Source: Euzebya rosea (GTDB lineage Bacteria > Actinomycetota > Nitriliruptoria > Euzebyales > Euzebyaceae). From it: a stretch of DNA of 32,000 nt. Below the pieces are notes generated by a model. It did not search any database and had not been told where the DNA came from. It saw nothing but the letters and a program-made list of their open reading frames with translations. Positions 23,508 through 30,115 of the stretch are shown piece by piece. The DNA lies in NCBI RefSeq assembly GCF_003073135.1, contig NZ_PGDQ01000004.1, forward strand, positions 18,363-50,362, read 5' to 3'. Each line of letters begins with the position of its first letter. The first letter of the stretch is position 1. The position numbers were made by a program, and so were the translations under genes.

Positions 23508-23560
23508 GCCGCCCTGGGATCGGTGGAGGCTCCTAACCTTGGATTCCAAGGAGGAGCACG

Positions 23561-23871
23561 ATAAGCACGACAGGTCCATCGGGGTCGCCGAACTCGCGTC
23601 GGTACACCCCTGAGGAGAAGGCCCAGGCCGTCCGGCTGGTGCGCGCGCTGCGGACCGAGCTGGGCACGACGCAGGGCACCGTGACCCGGGTCGCCGACCA
23701 GCTCGGCTACGGCCGCGAGACGGTCCGCAAGTGGGTCCGCGACGACGAGATCACCAACGGCGCCACTCCGACCGTCGCTGAACAGAGCACGGCGGAGCAG
23801 CGCCGGATCGCGCAGCTGGAGCAGGAGAATCGCGAGCGCAAGCGGGCCAACGCGATCCTGAAGTCCGCATC
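23561..23871 (+). pseudogene. IS3-family OrfA, 5' part (no ATG; split by the IS30 insertion)
   Basis: AAGGAGG lies at 23548-23554, followed 6 nt later by ATA (23561) where an ATG would be expected. The frame is open from 23537. The reading frame resumes at 25096 after the nested IS. Confidence 0.6.
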
Positions 23872-25035
23872 CCTGAACTCAAGGGTCAGCGCAACGGTTG
23901 CGAGGGTAGCGGAGGGCGTGGCGAACTCGAGGCGCTTGCGGGGCCGGCGATTCAACTTGGCCGCGATCGCGTCGAAGTCGGCCTGGGTCAGGCCGGCCAT
24001 CGACTCACCCTTCGGCAGGTACTGGCGCAGCAGACCGTTCGTGTTCTCGTTCGTGCCACGCTGCCAGGGTGACCGGGAATCGCAGAAGAAGACCGGGACG
24101 CTGGTCTCCTCGGTGAGCCGCTGGTGATCGGCGAGTTCCATCCCGCGGTCCCAGGTCAGCGACTTGAACAGTCCGTCCGGCGCGTTGCCGATCCGGTTGA
24201 TGATCGCGTCGACGACGACGCTGGTGTGCCGACTCGCCAGCTCCAGGCAGATCGTGTAGCCGCTGGTGCGCTCGACCAGCGTCGCGATCTGCGTCCAGTG
24301 GCGGCCGAGAAGCATGTCACCTTCCCAGTGGCCTACTTCCTCGCGGGTCTCCACGTGCGCCGGCCGGTCGTGGATCGACACGGCGTTCTTGATCTGGGAG
24401 CGCCACTGCCCGGTCGTGGTGTTGTGCACGTTGCGGCGGGTGGGCCGCCGTGTGCGCAGCCGCTTCGTCAGCTGGTGGTCCAGCACGCCGCGGGAGCGGA
24501 CGAACAGCGACTTGTAGATGGCTTCGTGGGAGATCACCACGCCGTCGCCGAGCGGCTAGTCTCGTCGAAGCGTTCCGGCGATTTGCTCCGGCGACCAGTC
24601 CTCGGCGAGCCGATCAGCGACGTAGCCGCGTAGGCGCGGGTCACGTTTCAGCAGACAGGGCTTGGGGCGTCGGGCCCGCCGCCATGACCGGTCATCGGCG
24701 TCGACAGCACGGTAGTGCCGACGCCCGTTGTTTCTGGAGATCTCGCGACTGATCGTTGATGGGGGCCGCCCCAGATCGCGGGCAATCTGACGGATCGACT
24801 GCCCGGCGGCCAGACCTCTGGAGATCTCCTCCCGATCCTCAAGCGTCAGCGTGCCGGGACGACGGCGACGTGGCGGCGGAACGTAGCCGCCGGTCTGACG
24901 GATGATCGTGTAGATCGACCCCGGCGGGTGTCCGACGGCCTCTGCGATCTCGCTGAAGGAGCTGCCCGACCCCCACATCTTCCACACCGTCGCATGCTTC
25001 TCATCGGACATGCCGGGCCTCCCCAGCTTCGCCAT
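23872..25035 (-). pseudogene. IS30-family transposase with an in-frame TAG
   Basis: N-terminal HTH region: MAKLGRPGMSDEKH...SIRQIARDLGRPPSTISREISRN. DDE region: HWEGDMLLG...LTWDRGMELA...FCDSRSPWQRGTNENTNGLLRQYLPKG. An in-frame TAG (complement at 24556-24558) separates ...IAGTLRRD from PLGDGVVISHEAIY. The native stop appears lost, because the frame runs out through the IR. Confidence 0.75.
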
Positions 25036-25095
25036 CGCACACCACCTCCAGGGGTCATCTTCACGGGGGTGTTGCGCAGACCGGTTGAACCCAGG
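23872..25095 (-). mobile_element. IS30-family insertion sequence (copy 1, 1224 bp) nested in IS3 orfA
   Basis: The imperfect terminal inverted repeats are CCTGAACTCAAGGGTCAGCGCAAC (23872-23895) and the reverse complement of GTTGCGCAGACCGGTTGAACCCAGG (25071-25095). A 2-bp duplication TC flanks both sides. Removing the element and one TC restores the IS3 OrfA frame (KSAS-AFLAAELDRPHR*). Confidence 0.8.
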
Positions 25096-25133
25096 TCGGC
25101 TTTCCTCGCGGCGGAGCTCGACCGCCCACACAG

Positions 25134-25738
25134 GTGATGGTCGACTACATCGACGCCCACAAGGACGAGTACGGGATCGAGCCGATCAGCCGGGTGCTGC
25201 CGATCGCCCCGTCGACCTACTACGCCGCCAAGCAGCGGGAGGAACGGCCCTCAACACGGGCCGTGCGCGACGCGATCATGATGCCGGTCCTGCTCGCGCT
25301 GTGGACCGCCAACCGCAAGGTCTACGGGGCCGACAAGCTGTGGCGTGCCGCACGACGGGCCGGCCACGACATCGGCCGCGACCAGGTCGCCCGGCTCATG
25401 CGCCAGCTCGACATCCACGGCGTCTCCCGCCAGCGGAAACGCGTGTTCACGACCCGACCTGATCCGGACGCGGCCAGGCCGCCGGACCTGGTCAACCGCG
25501 ACTTCACCGCGGCGGCGCCGAACCTGCTGTGGGTCACGGACCTGACCTACGTCCCGACCCGGTCGGGGATGGCGTACGTGTGCTTCATCGTGGATGCGTT
25601 CTCCCGACGGATCGTCGGGTGGCGGGTCGCCTCGCACATGCGCCCGACATGGTCCTCGATGCGCTGGAGATGGCCCGACGCTCCCGCGGGACCGGCCGGT
25701 TCGTCGGCCTCGTGACACACGCCGATGCAGGGTCGCAA
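25134..25738 (+). pseudogene. IS3-family OrfB (integrase core), frameshifted and 3'-truncated
   Basis: ...IVGWRVASHMR is followed, after a 1-nt shift near 25643, by DMVLDALEMARRSRGTGRFVGLVTHADAGSQ. It ends abruptly at the IS30 copy 2 boundary (25738/25739), before the rest of the DDE core. Confidence 0.75.
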
Positions 25739-27185
25739 GGCGAACTCAACCGGTCGTCGCAACAACCTCGACGTATGGAGGTTGTGATGGTTCGACGGCA
25801 GCAGGCAGCAGATCGGGCGTTGCGTCCGGCGATGCGGTCACCGGGACGGCCGATCCCGGCACGTCATGTGGAACGCGAGTTCTGGCGGCTGATCGCCCAG
25901 GGGCTGAGCACCGAGGACGCCGCGGTCGAGGTCGGCGTGTCGGTTCCCGTCGGTTCACGATGGTTCCGCCACGCTGGCGGCATGACACCGCTGCCGCTTG
26001 CCGAGCCGTCCGGCCGGTACCTGTCGTTCGCCGAGCGCGAAGAGCTGGCGCTGCTCCGCGCCCAGAACCTGGGTGTCCGGGCGATCGCCCGCGAGATGAA
26101 ACGCGATCCGAGCACGATCTCGCGCGAACTGCGCCGCAACGCCGCCACCCGCGGTGGCAAGCTGGACTACCGGGCCAGCGTGGCGCAGTGGAAGGCCCAG
26201 ATGGCAGCCAAGCGCCCGAAGCCGGCGAAGCTGACCACGAACCCGCGGCTGGCCGACTACGTGCGCGAACGACTCAGCGGCGAGCTGACCCGGCCCGACG
26301 GCACGGCTGCGGCCGGCCCCCCGACGACGTGGAAGGGGCTGAACAAGCCGCACCGGTCGGATCGTCGCTGGGCCACCGCGTGGAGCCCGGAGCAGATCTC
26401 CCGGCGGCTGGTCATCGACTTCCCCGATGATGAGGACATGCGCATCAGCCACGAGGCGATCTACCAGGCGCTCTACATCGAAGGGCGGGGTGCGCTGAAG
26501 CGCGCACTGGTCGCCTGCCTGCGGACAGGGCGTGCGCTGCGCAAGCCGCGTGAACGGGCACGCAACCGCCCGCAAGGCCATGTGACCGCCGACGTGGTGC
26601 TGAGCGAACGGCCAGCCGAAGCCGAAGACCGGGCCGTGCCGGGACACTGGGAAGGAGACCTCATCATCGGCCTGCACCGCTCCGCCATCGGCACCGTCGT
26701 GGAACGCAGCAGCCGCTACACCCTTCTCGTGCACCTGCCACGACTTGAGGGGTACGGCATCCAGGCGCCGGTGAAGAACGGGCCGGCGCTTGGCGGCTAC
26801 GGCGCGGTCGCGATGAAGGACGCCCTCGAAGCGACCCTCGCAACGATGCCGCAGGGGTTGGTGCGCTCGCTGACCTGGGACCGCGGCAAGGAGCTGTCCG
26901 CCCACGCGCAGTTTACCATCGACACCGGCGTCGCGGTGTTCTTCGCCGACCCGCACTCACCGTGGCAGCGCGCGACCAACGAGAACACCAACGGGCTGCT
27001 CCGCCAGTACTTCCCCAAGGGCACCGACCTCTCCCGCTGGAGCCTTCAGGACGTCCTCGCCGTCCAAGACGCGCTCAACAGCAGACCCCGGAAGGTCCTC
27101 GGCTGGAAGACCCCCGCCGAAGTCCTCGACGAGCAACTACGCTCTCTGGAACAAGCAGGTGTTGCATCGACTGGTTGAACCTGGG
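25739..27185 (+). mobile_element. IS30-family insertion sequence (copy 2, ~1.45 kb), apparently intact
   Basis: The left end GGCGAACTCAACCGGTCGTCGCAAC (25739-25763) and right end GTTGCATCGACTGGTTGAACCTGGG (27161-27185) are inverted repeats. They are related to each other and to copy 1 (core TCAACCrGTCG..GCAAC). The tips are approximate. Confidence 0.75.
25775..27178 (+). CDS. IS30-family transposase
   Basis: HTH regions: LSTEDAAVEVGVSVPVGSRW and GVRAIAREMKRDPSTISRELRRN. DDE core: HWEGDLIIG...LTWDRGKELS...FADPHSPWQRATNENTNGLLRQYFPKG. The ORF is uninterrupted, and the stop TGA lies inside the right IR. An alternative start is ATG 25787. Confidence 0.88.
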   Translation: MEVVMVRRQQAADRALRPAMRSPGRPIPARHVEREFWRLIAQGLSTEDAAVEVGVSVPVGSRWFRHAGGMTPLPLAEPSGRYLSFAEREELALLRAQNLGVRAIAREMKRDPSTISRELRRNAATRGGKLDYRASVAQWKAQMAAKRPKPAKLTTNPRLADYVRERLSGELTRPDGTAAAGPPTTWKGLNKPHRSDRRWATAWSPEQISRRLVIDFPDDEDMRISHEAIYQALYIEGRGALKRALVACLRTGRALRKPRERARNRPQGHVTADVVLSERPAEAEDRAVPGHWEGDLIIGLHRSAIGTVVERSSRYTLLVHLPRLEGYGIQAPVKNGPALGGYGAVAMKDALEATLATMPQGLVRSLTWDRGKELSAHAQFTIDTGVAVFFADPHSPWQRATNENTNGLLRQYFPKGTDLSRWSLQDVLAVQDALNSRPRKVLGWKTPAEVLDEQLRSLEQAGVASTG

Positions 27186-27626
27186 CCGACGCTGGTCCTG
27201 ATCGAGGACGTAGACGCCCATGCCCCACGTCGCGGCCGGTCCGTCGATGGCCGGCTGGGGGAGTTCCTCAACGCGCTGGACGGGCTAGGGCGAACGGACG
27301 CCCCGGTGGTCACGCTCATGACCACCAACGACCTCCGCGTCCTCGATGAAGCCGCTCGGCGAGCCGGGCGCATCGACGTGGTCATCGAGGTGCCACGCCC
27401 CAACGTCTCGGGACGCGAATCGATCCTCCGTCATCTTTTGGCCAACGTCGATCACACCGTCGATGTCCGCCAGGCCGCGAGAGCCACCGACGGCTGCACC
27501 GCCGCAGACATCCGAGAGTTCGTACGCCGAGCAGCGTTCACCGGCCGAGGCCGCGTCGAACACGACGATGTGATGCGGGAGATCGCCGACTCGCGCGACT
27601 GGGCGCCGGCAGGGGCCTACCTGTGA
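27186..27626 (+). pseudogene. AAA+ ATPase, C-terminal part only (5' end removed at the IS30 boundary)
   Basis: It begins at the IS30 right end with Walker B PTLVLIEDVDA. It continues FLNALDGL, VTLMTTNDLRVLDEAARRAGRIDVVIEVPRP and the lid helix region. Walker A and the N-terminus are absent. Confidence 0.75.
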
Positions 27627-28126
27627 ACGCGGTCAGAGCCGAGCTGCTGTCCCTGCCCGGAACCGGGTTCGACGACGACTGTGCCCGGATCGCCGAGGCG
27701 GCGTACCAAGGTCTCGACGGGACGACCGCTGTCCGGGCGCGGGATTCATTCCAGCGGATGCGCGACACCAGCGGACTGCATCGCATGGGTGCGTTCGCCC
27801 ACGGCGAGCTCCGCGGATTCATTGCGGCAACGACCAACAGCGACTCCCCGTTGGCGTGGCAGGTGTGGTGGCTGGCCGTGCAGACGGGTGATCGCAGACG
27901 GGGCCTTGGTACCCAGCTCATTCGTGATCTTGAGGCCGATGCCCGGAAGGCAGGTGTCGTGCAGTTGTGGCTGTGGACCTGGCAGACCGCCGAGGCGGCG
28001 ATGGCCCTCTACGACGCAGTTGGCTGGCAGAAGTGTGAGCGGGTCGTCGTCGAACTGGAGGGGGATGCGCGAGGGCCCCTCCAGTCCCGATGGGTCTACC
28101 GACGCGAGATCGAGGCTCTCCGGTGA
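27623..28126 (+). CDS. GNAT family N-acetyltransferase
   Basis: The acetyl-CoA binding motif A reads WWLAVQTGDRRRGLGTQLIRDLEADARKAG. It is followed by LWLWTWQTAEAAMALYDAVGW. GTG at 27623 overlaps the AAA+ stop (GTGA). Confidence 0.8.
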   Translation: MNAVRAELLSLPGTGFDDDCARIAEAAYQGLDGTTAVRARDSFQRMRDTSGLHRMGAFAHGELRGFIAATTNSDSPLAWQVWWLAVQTGDRRRGLGTQLIRDLEADARKAGVVQLWLWTWQTAEAAMALYDAVGWQKCERVVVELEGDARGPLQSRWVYRREIEALR

Positions 28127-28728
28127 GTACACAGATCGACCTACCGATCGCCGGCGGAACGGTTCGCGCGGCTGGCGAGCTCGTTCGACGCTACTGCGGG
28201 ATGACCGGAGAGACATGGGCGTACCCGTTCTACGACGCGGTCCCGACCTCGCCGGTGGTCGGTCCGGTCGACTTGCTCGCCGCGGGGATCATGCATGGTC
28301 CCATCCGGCAGGAAGACCTGGAGTGGTTCGTCCAAGTCCGAGATGGCATGCAGCGTCTGGTCGATGCGCTCCCTGACGATACGGGCCTCGATGACGCCGA
28401 TGACGCGACGGTGGACACCCTAACCTCGGGAGTGTTGGACCTGGGTGATGGGCGCCCACCCTCACTGCTGACGAAGATCATCCATCGACATCGGCCGAGG
28501 CTGATCGTCCTGGACGAGCGAGATATCGGTCGTCGCTACGGCTCTGCCATCGATGGACGTGGTCGGCTGCCCTACCCGCGGCTGGTCCACGCCGTCCGGG
28601 AGGACATGCGGCAGCCCGCCGTTCGTGAGGGGCTGGAGGCGATCGGTCGTGAGCTCCGGGGACTGCTCCCAGTGCCCTCACGGCTGCGGATCCTCGACAT
28701 CGCCGTCTGGATGGACGCGCGGCGCTAG
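28123..28728 (+). CDS. DUF6308-like hypothetical protein
   Basis: GTG at 28123 overlaps the GNAT stop (GTGA). The segments LLTKIIHRHRPRLIVLDERDI and LRILDIAVWM resemble the KLLARKRPRLxPxYD ... LRVLDVxxWM pattern I recall for the actinobacterial DUF6308 family. The family name is from memory and unverified. Confidence 0.55.
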   Translation: MSTQIDLPIAGGTVRAAGELVRRYCGMTGETWAYPFYDAVPTSPVVGPVDLLAAGIMHGPIRQEDLEWFVQVRDGMQRLVDALPDDTGLDDADDATVDTLTSGVLDLGDGRPPSLLTKIIHRHRPRLIVLDERDIGRRYGSAIDGRGRLPYPRLVHAVREDMRQPAVREGLEAIGRELRGLLPVPSRLRILDIAVWMDARR

Positions 28729-28822
28729 GCGTGCGCCGTCCGGCAGCGTCCTGGAGTCCGCGGACTCGTGTCACAGGCGAGGGATACCGTGAACCCTGTC
28801 CGCTCGTTCTTGGAGGTGCTCA

Positions 28823-30115
28823 GTGAAGGTTGCCGTGGTCGGGCTGCGGTGGGATGGCACCGCTCGGATCGTGAGGGCCTTGGTGGAGGCTGGACATGAC
28901 GTACTGGCGATCCATGAGGGGGCGATGGACGGAAGCTCGTTGCCGGAGGAGCGGCTTTCCGAACTCCAGCCCGTGGCTGGTCGGTTCACGCTCGTGGGTG
29001 GGGATGGTGGCATCCACGACGAACTTGAGTCAATCGGCTGGAAAGCCGTCTCCCGTCTCGCTGACGGCTGTGACGTCGTTGTCTTGGGACGCTGGTACGG
29101 CTGGCTCGAGCATCATGTTGGCGAGCAAGCGGTGCAGTGGGCTGCCGATACCAGCGTGCACCTCGTGGTCATGGAGTCGGCCAACGTGGTCGTTGACTCC
29201 ACCGTTCGGGCCTTCGCTGACTGGGCAACGCAACACGACGCGGGCAGCCAAGTTCGGTTCGTCCGCGACGTCGAAGACGACTTGGCGCTAGCCGACCTTG
29301 GCTCCCTGAACGCACCAGGCGATGGCATCGGAGAGTTGCTGATCGTCCTAGCCGCGGCCGGCTTCGAATCCACCTCCGCAGCCATCGTGGATGAGCAGCG
29401 CGACCGGCTCCGGTGGGAATGGGGTGTCCCCGTGATCGGGCTCGACTGGGCGGAGGAGGGCTGGGTGGGCGGAGAGAAGTGGCACCTCCGGCTCGGGCCC
29501 TCGCGGGCAGCCCTTCAGCGTGATCACGAAGACGGGGTGGACTGGCATCCACCCGAGGGCATCCCAGCGATGATCCTGAGGGGGACGGACGAGGGCGGCG
29601 ACACCGTCGCAGTGCGTCTCGTCGGTGACACCGATGCGTTCTCCAGCGACGCCTCCCGGACCACCCGGGCTGTACTCAGCTTGCCGACCGGCGAGCTCTT
29701 CGTCGGGCCCGTCGATGCCGGTGAGGACGAGGTCATCGACGTCATCGATATCTCCCCCGGAGACTGGGTCGTCCAGCTCGATGACGAGCCGTGTGGAGCA
29801 CAGATCTTCCCTGCCAGTCCGAGCGTGCGGCAGGCATGGCCCGCATGCCCTGCCTGTGGTGAGCAGGTTGGGTTCTTGGTCAGCGGCATGCCGTCCTCAG
29901 ATCTGCTTCCCGCCGTTGAGCGCGGCGAGGTCAGGCTGGGAGGTTGCATGCCAGCTGTGGGTGGTCCGCCGGACGCGTGTCCTCGGTGCCGGAGCTGGCT
30001 CGCGCCGGTGTACCAGGATGACGCCGACCTCGATGAGGACGATGAGGGAGCGCAGGTCGGCTGGCGGACGCTGCCGTGGTCGGTCGGGTCGTTCGAGTTC
30101 TCCCTTGGGCGGTAG
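28823..30115 (+). CDS. Hypothetical protein (430 aa) with a C-terminal CxxC...CxxC zinc ribbon and an acidic tail
   Basis: GTG at 28823 follows GGAGG. The N-terminus MKVAVVGL...LVEAGHDVLAI resembles a Rossmann-type strand-loop-helix but has no clean GxGxxG. The C-terminus is CPACGEQVGFLVSGMPSSDLLPAVERGEVRLGGCMPAVGGPPDACPRCRSW, followed by DDADLDEDDE. No family recognised. Confidence 0.65.
   Translation: MKVAVVGLRWDGTARIVRALVEAGHDVLAIHEGAMDGSSLPEERLSELQPVAGRFTLVGGDGGIHDELESIGWKAVSRLADGCDVVVLGRWYGWLEHHVGEQAVQWAADTSVHLVVMESANVVVDSTVRAFADWATQHDAGSQVRFVRDVEDDLALADLGSLNAPGDGIGELLIVLAAAGFESTSAAIVDEQRDRLRWEWGVPVIGLDWAEEGWVGGEKWHLRLGPSRAALQRDHEDGVDWHPPEGIPAMILRGTDEGGDTVAVRLVGDTDAFSSDASRTTRAVLSLPTGELFVGPVDAGEDEVIDVIDISPGDWVVQLDDEPCGAQIFPASPSVRQAWPACPACGEQVGFLVSGMPSSDLLPAVERGEVRLGGCMPAVGGPPDACPRCRSWLAPVYQDDADLDEDDEGAQVGWRTLPWSVGSFEFSLGR

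Follow-up and report, generated by a model that had tools for sequence, protein, structure and literature searches.

The locus

The window analyzed here is a stretch of 32,000 nucleotides from Euzebya rosea (contig NZ_PGDQ01000004.1, positions 18,363 to 50,362 of the forward strand). We are concerned with a cluster of three plus-strand genes within it, at window positions 27186 to 28728, that encode the remnant of an AAA ATPase, a GNAT acetyltransferase and a protein of the DUF6308 family. The window copy is a dead remnant, and its value is that of a pointer to an intact module found elsewhere, whose ATPase ends in a motif reminiscent of proteasome regulators. The features at the locus are as follows.

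25739..27185, plus strand: IS30-family insertion sequence (IS) with an NF033563 transposase, its left border as in the preliminary description of this DNA
27186..27626, plus strand: 3' remnant of an AAA ATPase gene, 146 codons corresponding to residues 275-420 of the intact protein (PF00004 and AAA_lid_3)
27612..27623, plus strand: codons of the ATPase C-terminal G-A-Y-L tail, a proteasome-docking-type motif
27623..28126, plus strand: GNAT acetyltransferase, 167 amino acids, intact (PF00583)
28123..28728, plus strand: DUF6308 protein, 201 amino acids, "A-type" paralogue class, intact (PF19827)

GTGA stop/start overlaps at 27623-27626 and 28123-28126 join the ATPase remnant, the GNAT gene and the DUF6308 gene, at exactly the positions at which the preliminary description, made from the letters alone, had placed them. 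To judge by these overlaps, the GNAT gene is translationally coupled to the genes on either side of it. A promoter and terminator scan over positions 26900-28950 found none. Three metatranscriptome libraries each contained one 151-nt contig with 100% identity to pieces of the trio, which is too sparse to show transcription.

The transposase open reading frame (ORF) of the IS30 element (NF033563 match 2.2e-70) stops at 27178. In a DNA alignment, similarity to the intact ATPase gene of the best-preserved relative, locus L019 on a JGI metagenome contig, sets in at about 27183-27186, at codon 275 of 420, and the right end of IS30 stands in place of the 5' 822 nt of the ATPase gene. Gene callers place the start of the remnant at a GTG at 27159, within the IS30 end. 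As the assembly contains a single copy of this element, its ends are not definable from other copies. The junction is identical in all examined metagenome contigs that carry an identical DUF6308 gene and reach that far, and because every such contig shares it, the break is fixed in the window lineage.

What is left of the ATPase matches PF00004 (2.6e-9, positions 58-130 of 131) and AAA_lid_3. It keeps the Walker B motif (LIEDVD), sensor-1 (TTN), the arginine-finger region (RRAGRID) and the helical lid, in agreement with its earlier description as a classical AAA protein with these three motifs, and it shares 84% identity with the corresponding part (residues 275-420) of the L019 ATPase, a protein of 420 amino acids (L019:1139-2401). 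Gone are the 274 N-terminal residues and with them the N-domain, the pore loop and the Walker A motif (GPPGTGKT), which occupies residues 232-239 in the intact orthologue. Because these three elements are lost, the function of the window ATPase is, by its sequence, dead: the protein must be inactive, with neither ATP hydrolysis nor substrate threading possible. The earlier view of a copy beheaded by IS30, truncated at what we now place at codon 275, thus holds. A search of the organism's own 5.5-Mb assembly for the missing N-terminal half gave just Walker A-level matches to other AAA genes, and since no such half was found, the 5' half must have been deleted or have remained unassembled, rather than having moved.

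An intact module in other genomes

A search for intact homologous trios showed that the three families co-occur in other contigs. In L019, a DUF6308 paralogue is divergently transcribed upstream (on the minus strand) of an intact ATPase, a GNAT gene and a second DUF6308 gene, in that order. L021 and L022 contain an ATPase-GNAT pair (ATPase 59% identity), in L021 with DUF6308 upstream; L023 and L024 contain another such pair (ATPase 53% identity), in L023 with DUF6308 on both sides. L025 and L026 have DUF6308-ATPase(-DUF6308) arrangements without GNAT. The GNAT gene always follows the ATPase in trio loci. As the gene order recurs in independent contigs, the arrangement is not a matter of chance. 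The window genes are 56% (GNAT) and 70% (DUF6308) identical to their L019 counterparts at the protein level, and the ratios of nonsynonymous to synonymous substitution (dN/dS) between window and L019 are 0.10 for the ATPase, 0.23 for the GNAT and 0.18 for DUF6308; these low values speak for three real and constrained genes.

More distant DUF6308 relatives adjoin ATPases of a second clade with a DUF5925 N-domain, in Mycolicibacter genomes, in an Acidimicrobiales metagenome-assembled genome and in the metagenome locus L020; a second DUF6308 gene usually accompanies these ATPases as well. The L019 ATPase has no PF19347 (DUF5925) match at E<=0.01, and the window copy lacks that region altogether. 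In a profile comparison, the homology of the window-type to the DUF5925-type ATPases extends past the AAA core: it takes in the AAA module, the linker and the last part of the N-domain (hhalign probability 98.5%, 217 columns).

How firmly the partners belong together can be gauged from 80 metagenome loci that were retrieved with DUF6308 alone as seed. An ATPase is adjacent in 46 of the 80, and in 20 of the 27 loci whose flanks reach 1.3 kb or more on either side; at least two DUF6308 genes are present in 18 of the 46 ATPase-bearing loci. From these gene neighborhoods, the conserved core of the module is a ring ATPase with DUF6308, often paired, and not the trio, and because of the second DUF6308 paralogue the intact unit, as read from its sequence, is one of four genes. 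The idea of a three-gene accessory system, put forward in the preliminary description, therefore survives in part: a conserved, co-oriented module exists, with intact trios in L019 and L023, but its core is the pair of ATPase and DUF6308, and four genes make up the whole. The window copy has no upstream DUF6308 paralogue, and GNAT and DUF6308-A are its sole intact genes. DUF6308 is also found without a GxYL-tailed ATPase. That no described system of this composition is known agrees with our literature search, in which no paper mentions DUF6308 or DUF5925.

The AAA module of the intact ATPase is nearest to those of the Cdc48/p97/VAT unfoldases. Its N-terminal domain of about 220 amino acids was modelled with a mean predicted local distance difference test (pLDDT) value of 84, and the top PDB matches of the model are Bcs1 chains, at a marginal level (E 1.6e-3, probability 1.0, template-modelling score 0.44). 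As a separate observation, the neighbors of the L019 ATPase in the language-model feature space of the Atlas include several clusters of AAA proteins of 470-510 amino acids, mostly with annotations from tailed phages (Uroviricota).

The C-terminal tail and the proteasome

The last four residues of the window ATPase are GAYL, a feature that is overlooked in the preliminary description and that we consider the most informative of the locus. A G-x-Y-L end is invariant in 18/18 aligned members of the window ATPase family. It recurs in the DUF5925 clade, where the first three neighbors inspected end in GMYL, GHYL and GNYL. The 41 complete DUF6308-linked ATPases from the metagenome loci comprise 29 with a GxYL end, 6 with xGYL, 3 with Y-V or Y-A and 3 with other ends, so that 35 of the 41 close on YL. 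Among the top 150 representative homologues retrieved with the window fragment, G-x-Y-L ends are seen in 31, and these include the single-AAA relatives closest to the window protein; among the long, multi-domain (Cdc48-like) members of the same 150, one alone does. Apart from the module, a DUF5925-AAA ATPase occurs in 11/11 genomes of one large-genome, Streptomyces-like genus (L055-L065; E ~1e-80), always with an AGLYL end and not adjacent to DUF6308; it looks like a core gene of that genus.

Opening of the mycobacterial 20S gate by Mpa and PafE/Bpa requires their GQYL motif, in which the Q is dispensable (PMC12288473, PMC6017811). The window genome encodes prcB/prcA at C39:204445-205762 and a true Mpa, with a GQYL end, at C39:212092-213627 (802 bits). 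The window ATPase is a different protein, scoring 26 bits against the Mpa model TIGR03689 with its cut-off of 504.75. PF00227 is present in all six tested genomes with a GxYL-tailed ATPase (G000, G332, G137 and the genomes of L001, L002 and L003), in a sample that is small and whose members are related to one another. Among eight genomes with weak DUF5925 relatives and no recognizable tail, PF00227 is absent in five and present in three (including G354).

Complex prediction with two copies of PrcA and the window fragment gave a score of 0.48, versus 0.00 for all three controls; the tool grades this as "weak support", a range in which its calls are more often wrong than right. The confident contacts are made solely by tail residues 143-146, with a patch of PrcA. 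One residue of this patch is K112 in the numbering of the ORF, or K52 if M61 is taken as the probable start, and sequence reading together with review text suggests that it is the conserved lysine of the PrcA pocket. The docking prediction is consistent with docking of the tail, and not decisive. On the strength of the conserved terminal residues, the tail directs attention to the 20S proteasome and away from a generic ATPase of defence.

Genomic context and mobility

Several lines of evidence describe the module as accessory. Its genes have a lower GC content at third codon positions (GC3) than their neighbors. TrwC relaxases directly adjoin it in L106 and L113, NERD proteins adjoin it in L020 and L113, L101 has a TnsA-like protein in its vicinity, and a DDE transposase is the neighbor of the L019 module. 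The modules of L102 and L123 are flanked by housekeeping genes, with no element genes nearby. The window copy itself sits in a low-GC3 island, with nested IS3/IS30 material on one side and two giant tyrosine-recombinase proteins on the other. The former, upstream of the intact IS30, consists of nested fragments at window positions 23537-25738, as the preliminary description has it, with these ORFs.

23639-24127: HTH_Tnp_1 ORF
24556-25131, minus strand: IS30 helix-turn-helix ORF
25134-25715: IS3 OrfB fragment

The latter are adjacent ORFs of 814 and about 2131 amino acids with C-terminal Phage_integrase domains, about 80 nt beyond the window end (L158:3446-12282). They are followed by a high-GC3 UvrA-like ABC gene, and probably form the distal boundary of the mobile island in which the trio lies.

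Distribution is patchy. The window DUF6308 protein, used as a query (P0003), found no match in 60 related genomes, and PF19827 matches occur in 15 of 401 genomes of the phylum, including one weak match in a congener. Patchiness, low GC3 and the proximity of NERD proteins, relaxases and IS elements would also be expected of a proteasome-independent conflict system, directed against phages or plasmids or acting by abortive infection, in which DUF6308 proteins, remodelled or activated by the AAA ring, would act as sensors or attackers of foreign DNA, and the YL tail would bind DUF6308 or some other partner in place of the 20S proteasome. Such a system could account for the swap of the ATPase for another type in one locus (L097), for the matches of the ATPase to TRIP13 and IetA models in PADLOC, and for the structural neighbors of DUF6308 in the Atlas that are fused to FokI or NmeDI nuclease domains. 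Against it, PADLOC-DB 2.0 has no match for GNAT or DUF6308 and assigns no system, and the TRIP13/IetA matches are partial and weak (E 1e-7 to 1e-8, AAA core only). No known defence gene is consistently found beside the module, the neighbors of which vary from locus to locus, and a scan of viral contigs yielded no relatives of DUF6308. This explanation leaves the exact proteasome-motif tail in proteasome-bearing genomes unexplained. We regard it as unlikely. The context fits a horizontally mobile accessory module and does not show a role in defence; the defence or toxin-antitoxin-like role that had been proposed for the trio is not supported.

The GNAT acetyltransferase

The window GNAT scores well above the PF00583 cut-off (4.5e-12, 46.7 bits, cut-off 20.7), and its acetyl-CoA loop, RRRGLG, follows the pattern R/Q-x-x-G-x-G/A. 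Orthologues in matching position in L019, L021 and L023 are 32-56% identical, and the four GNATs share their motifs. A search with the GNAT found no further match beyond its own cluster and the L019 orthologue, and there are 0 copies of the trio-type GNAT in the 80 related DUF6308 loci. Going by this distribution of sequences, the GNAT is an add-on of one clade and optional to the module. An unrelated GNAT (22% identity to the window GNAT) lies at L102:5314-5877, in divergent orientation upstream of a DUF6308-ATPase-DUF6308 arrangement; module and unrelated GNAT sit there between dnaE and a pseudouridine synthase gene, and the placement may be a coincidence.

Since the ORFs of GNAT and DUF6308 have survived undamaged, show purifying selection and overlap by 4 nt, and since the GNAT is about as large as toxins of the TacT/AtaT type, the two might be thought to form a toxin-antitoxin-like couple that acts independently of the ATPase, with the GNAT acetylating aminoacyl-tRNA and DUF6308 as antitoxin. 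The best family matches of the GNAT are RimI-like, however, with no match to GNAT toxin families (TacT/AtaT type) in NCBIfam or Pfam, and its neighbors are the ATPase and DUF6308 rather than a DUF1778 or ribbon-helix-helix antitoxin. DUF6308 does without a trio-type GNAT throughout the 80 loci, the GNAT stays behind the ATPase wherever the trio occurs, and no interface between GNAT and DUF6308 was predicted. A couple of this kind strikes us as very improbable.

The DUF6308 proteins

The window DUF6308 protein matches PF19827 over positions 1-192 of 193 (2.4e-16, 60.6 bits, cut-off 27.3). Its AlphaFold model is all-helical, with a pLDDT of 96.6. A Foldseek search of this model against the PDB and viral structures returned nothing below E 0.8, and the best glycosylase had an E of 8.

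Two further DUF6308-like sequences are present in the same genome. The start of contig C29 (L039:112-564) carries a 5'-truncated DUF6308 gene (PF19827 positions 69-192, E 7.7e-20) by IS21-like istA/istB remnants. We considered it as the missing upstream paralogue and rejected it, since it shows no similarity to the DUF6308-B protein of L019. Contig C3 (L054:778-1950) encodes a protein of 390 amino acids whose C-terminal domain weakly resembles DUF6308 (E 1e-6) and whose N-terminal half has no family assignment. Neither sequence is the paralogue lost from the window module.

Model

Together, our data suggest that the window contains a decayed copy of a conserved, mobile actinobacterial operon, whose intact ATPase would dock on the 20S proteasome through its G-x-Y-L end and work with DUF6308 partners. 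The mechanism is inferred, and we give this reading roughly an even chance of being correct. The intact ATPase consists of three parts: an N-domain of about 220 amino acids similar to the Bcs1-specific domain, an AAA unfoldase module of the classical, Cdc48-like kind and a flexible C-terminal tail with the G-x-Y-L motif. The intact operon comprises the ATPase and two DUF6308 paralogues, to which the window clade adds a GNAT between the ATPase and the second DUF6308. The tails would insert into the pockets between the alpha subunits of the host 20S particle, in the manner of Mpa and PafE/Bpa, and the docked ring would then feed chosen proteins into the proteasome. The DUF6308 proteins may be dedicated partners of the ATPase, either adaptors or sensors, perhaps with DNA-binding ability, or else regulated substrates, and the task of the GNAT may be to modify a target or one of these partners. 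In the window, an IS30-associated loss has removed the N-domain, the Walker A motif and the pore loop of the ATPase.

Beyond the limits already given for the co-occurrence sample and for the range of the complex score, several points weigh against this model. Most Actinomycetota possess a 20S proteasome anyway. The complex model may recall solved complexes with GQYL tails, and a C-terminal YL could dock on another partner. The link between the ATPase family and the proteasome is one of sequence and prediction. In addition, the tail is not a constant companion of DUF6308. At L097:5119-7489, the gene after two DUF6308 genes codes for a DnaB_C/KaiC-like ATPase (341 amino acids) instead of the AAA protein, which suggests that the ATPase partner of DUF6308 pairs is exchangeable, and in L098 a tail-less AAA protein takes the place of the GxYL ATPase. 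Given these replacements in L097 and L098, DUF6308 function does not strictly need the tail. Complex prediction with four L019 chains (the ATPase N-domain, DUF6308-B, GNAT and DUF6308-A) returned a score of 0.00, so that no contact of DUF6308-A with any of the other three chains was predicted; as a model output, this is neither support for an interaction nor evidence against it.

The suggestion of DNA binding by DUF6308 is likewise vulnerable. A conserved G-v-G...K...P-x-x-D stretch aligns to the hairpin and catalytic Asp of MutY at a sub-threshold E of ~1, and 7 of 43 DUF6308 members have Pfam helix-hairpin-helix (HhH) matches that are weak and also below threshold (E 0.03-0.15). Atlas labels and structural neighbors of DUF6308, which are unchecked, read OGG, HHH, or FokI or NmeDI nuclease fusions. 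The A-type paralogue of the window lacks the G-x-G hairpin and has Glu in the Asp column. DUF6308 may thus carry an HhH motif, to judge by sub-threshold or unchecked signals alone.

The same alignment, with its Asp falling on the catalytic Asp of MutY, has a place in another explanation, in which the mobile carrier element itself would benefit from the module, in its DNA metabolism or its maintenance. Here, DUF6308 would be an HhH DNA-binding or glycosylase-like protein with the ring ATPase as its helper; replication, transfer or anti-restriction of conjugative elements would be examples of such work. The TrwC relaxases directly beside the L106 and L113 modules, the tyrosine recombinases and IS elements that flank the window copy, and the DnaB_C-type ATPase that stands in for the AAA protein in L097 all agree with this. 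It is harder to reconcile with the copies of L102 and L123, which lie among housekeeping genes away from any element genes, and with an AAA module that belongs to a clade of protein unfoldases and not of DNA motors; membership of DUF6308 in the HhH-GPD family is not significant by sequence or by fold. We consider this explanation unlikely, and somewhat more so than the conflict system.

Within the proteasome-docking model, a more far-reaching version can be imagined. Mobile operons would bring their own ATPase into contact with the host 20S particle, the DUF6308 proteins would select substrates or themselves undergo degradation once a signal is received, perhaps foreign or damaged DNA, and the proteasome would be co-opted as the effector of a mobile element or a defence module. 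Reviews name only Mpa, Bpa/PafE and, less clearly, Cpa as bacterial proteasome partners. If the extended version were true, such operons would represent a fourth, horizontally transferred class of bacterial proteasome regulator. This version is speculative, and the chances are clearly against it.

If the docking model is true, a widespread and in part mobile single-ring AAA family with a docking tail and dedicated partner genes would provide a concrete and testable new route to the 20S particle, and would offer the first functional handles on the Pfam domains DUF6308 and DUF5925. What is new in our analysis is the operonic link of such ATPases to DUF6308 pairs and the GNAT, the second ATPase clade, the mobility of the module and the docking prediction.

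Comparison with known systems

Mpa/ARC (TIGR03689) is the AAA ATPase of the mycobacterial proteasome. Like Mpa, the module ATPase has an unfoldase module of the classical AAA clade, its chain closes on G-x-Y-L with Tyr as the second-last residue (GAYL in the window, GQYL in Mpa), and it is found in Actinomycetota that encode PrcAB; a contact between the window tail and the pocket lysine of PrcA is predicted. The window ATPase is nevertheless not an Mpa orthologue (26 bits versus a cut-off of 505). The module ATPase has neither the coiled-coil/OB N-terminal region nor the beta-grasp domain ahead of the tail and has a Bcs1-like N-domain instead, and its gene is accessory and mobile, lies outside the pup-prcBA locus and is paired with DUF6308. 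PafE/Bpa shares the GQYL-type docking motif and represents an alternative, Pup-independent route to the 20S particle. However, Bpa is small, helical and dodecameric, a non-ATPase that acts independently of ATP, and has no sequence relationship to the module ATPase.

The DUF6308 proteins invite comparison with the HhH-GPD glycosylases (MutY/EndoIII/Ogg), because they are all-helical, have the G-v-G...K...P-x-x-D stretch in register with the MutY hairpin and Asp (E ~1), and count an OGG-annotated cluster among their Atlas neighbors. Their matches are not significant by sequence (E ~1) or by Foldseek (best glycosylase E 8), and the A-type protein of the window has no G-x-G and a Glu at the Asp position. 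IetAS and other AAA-based PADLOC systems resemble the module in that they, too, are found in accessory islands and combine small partner genes with an ATPase of the single-AAA type, but the module has no IetS protease, and the matches of its ATPase are partial, weak and confined to the AAA core.

Bcs1, the heptameric AAA translocase of mitochondria, has an N-domain ahead of a single classical AAA module, as does the module ATPase, and is its best, if marginal, structural match. The module ATPase has no transmembrane anchor, and Bcs1 has no tail motif. The DUF5925-AAA proteins (PF19347 and PF00004) share with the window-type ATPase a homologous N-domain end, linker and AAA module as well as the G-x-Y-L end, and a DUF5925-AAA protein is the ATPase beside most DUF6308 pairs. 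The two differ in that the window-type ATPase (alignment A4) has no Pfam DUF5925 match, and in that loci of the DUF5925 type do not contain the trio-type GNAT.

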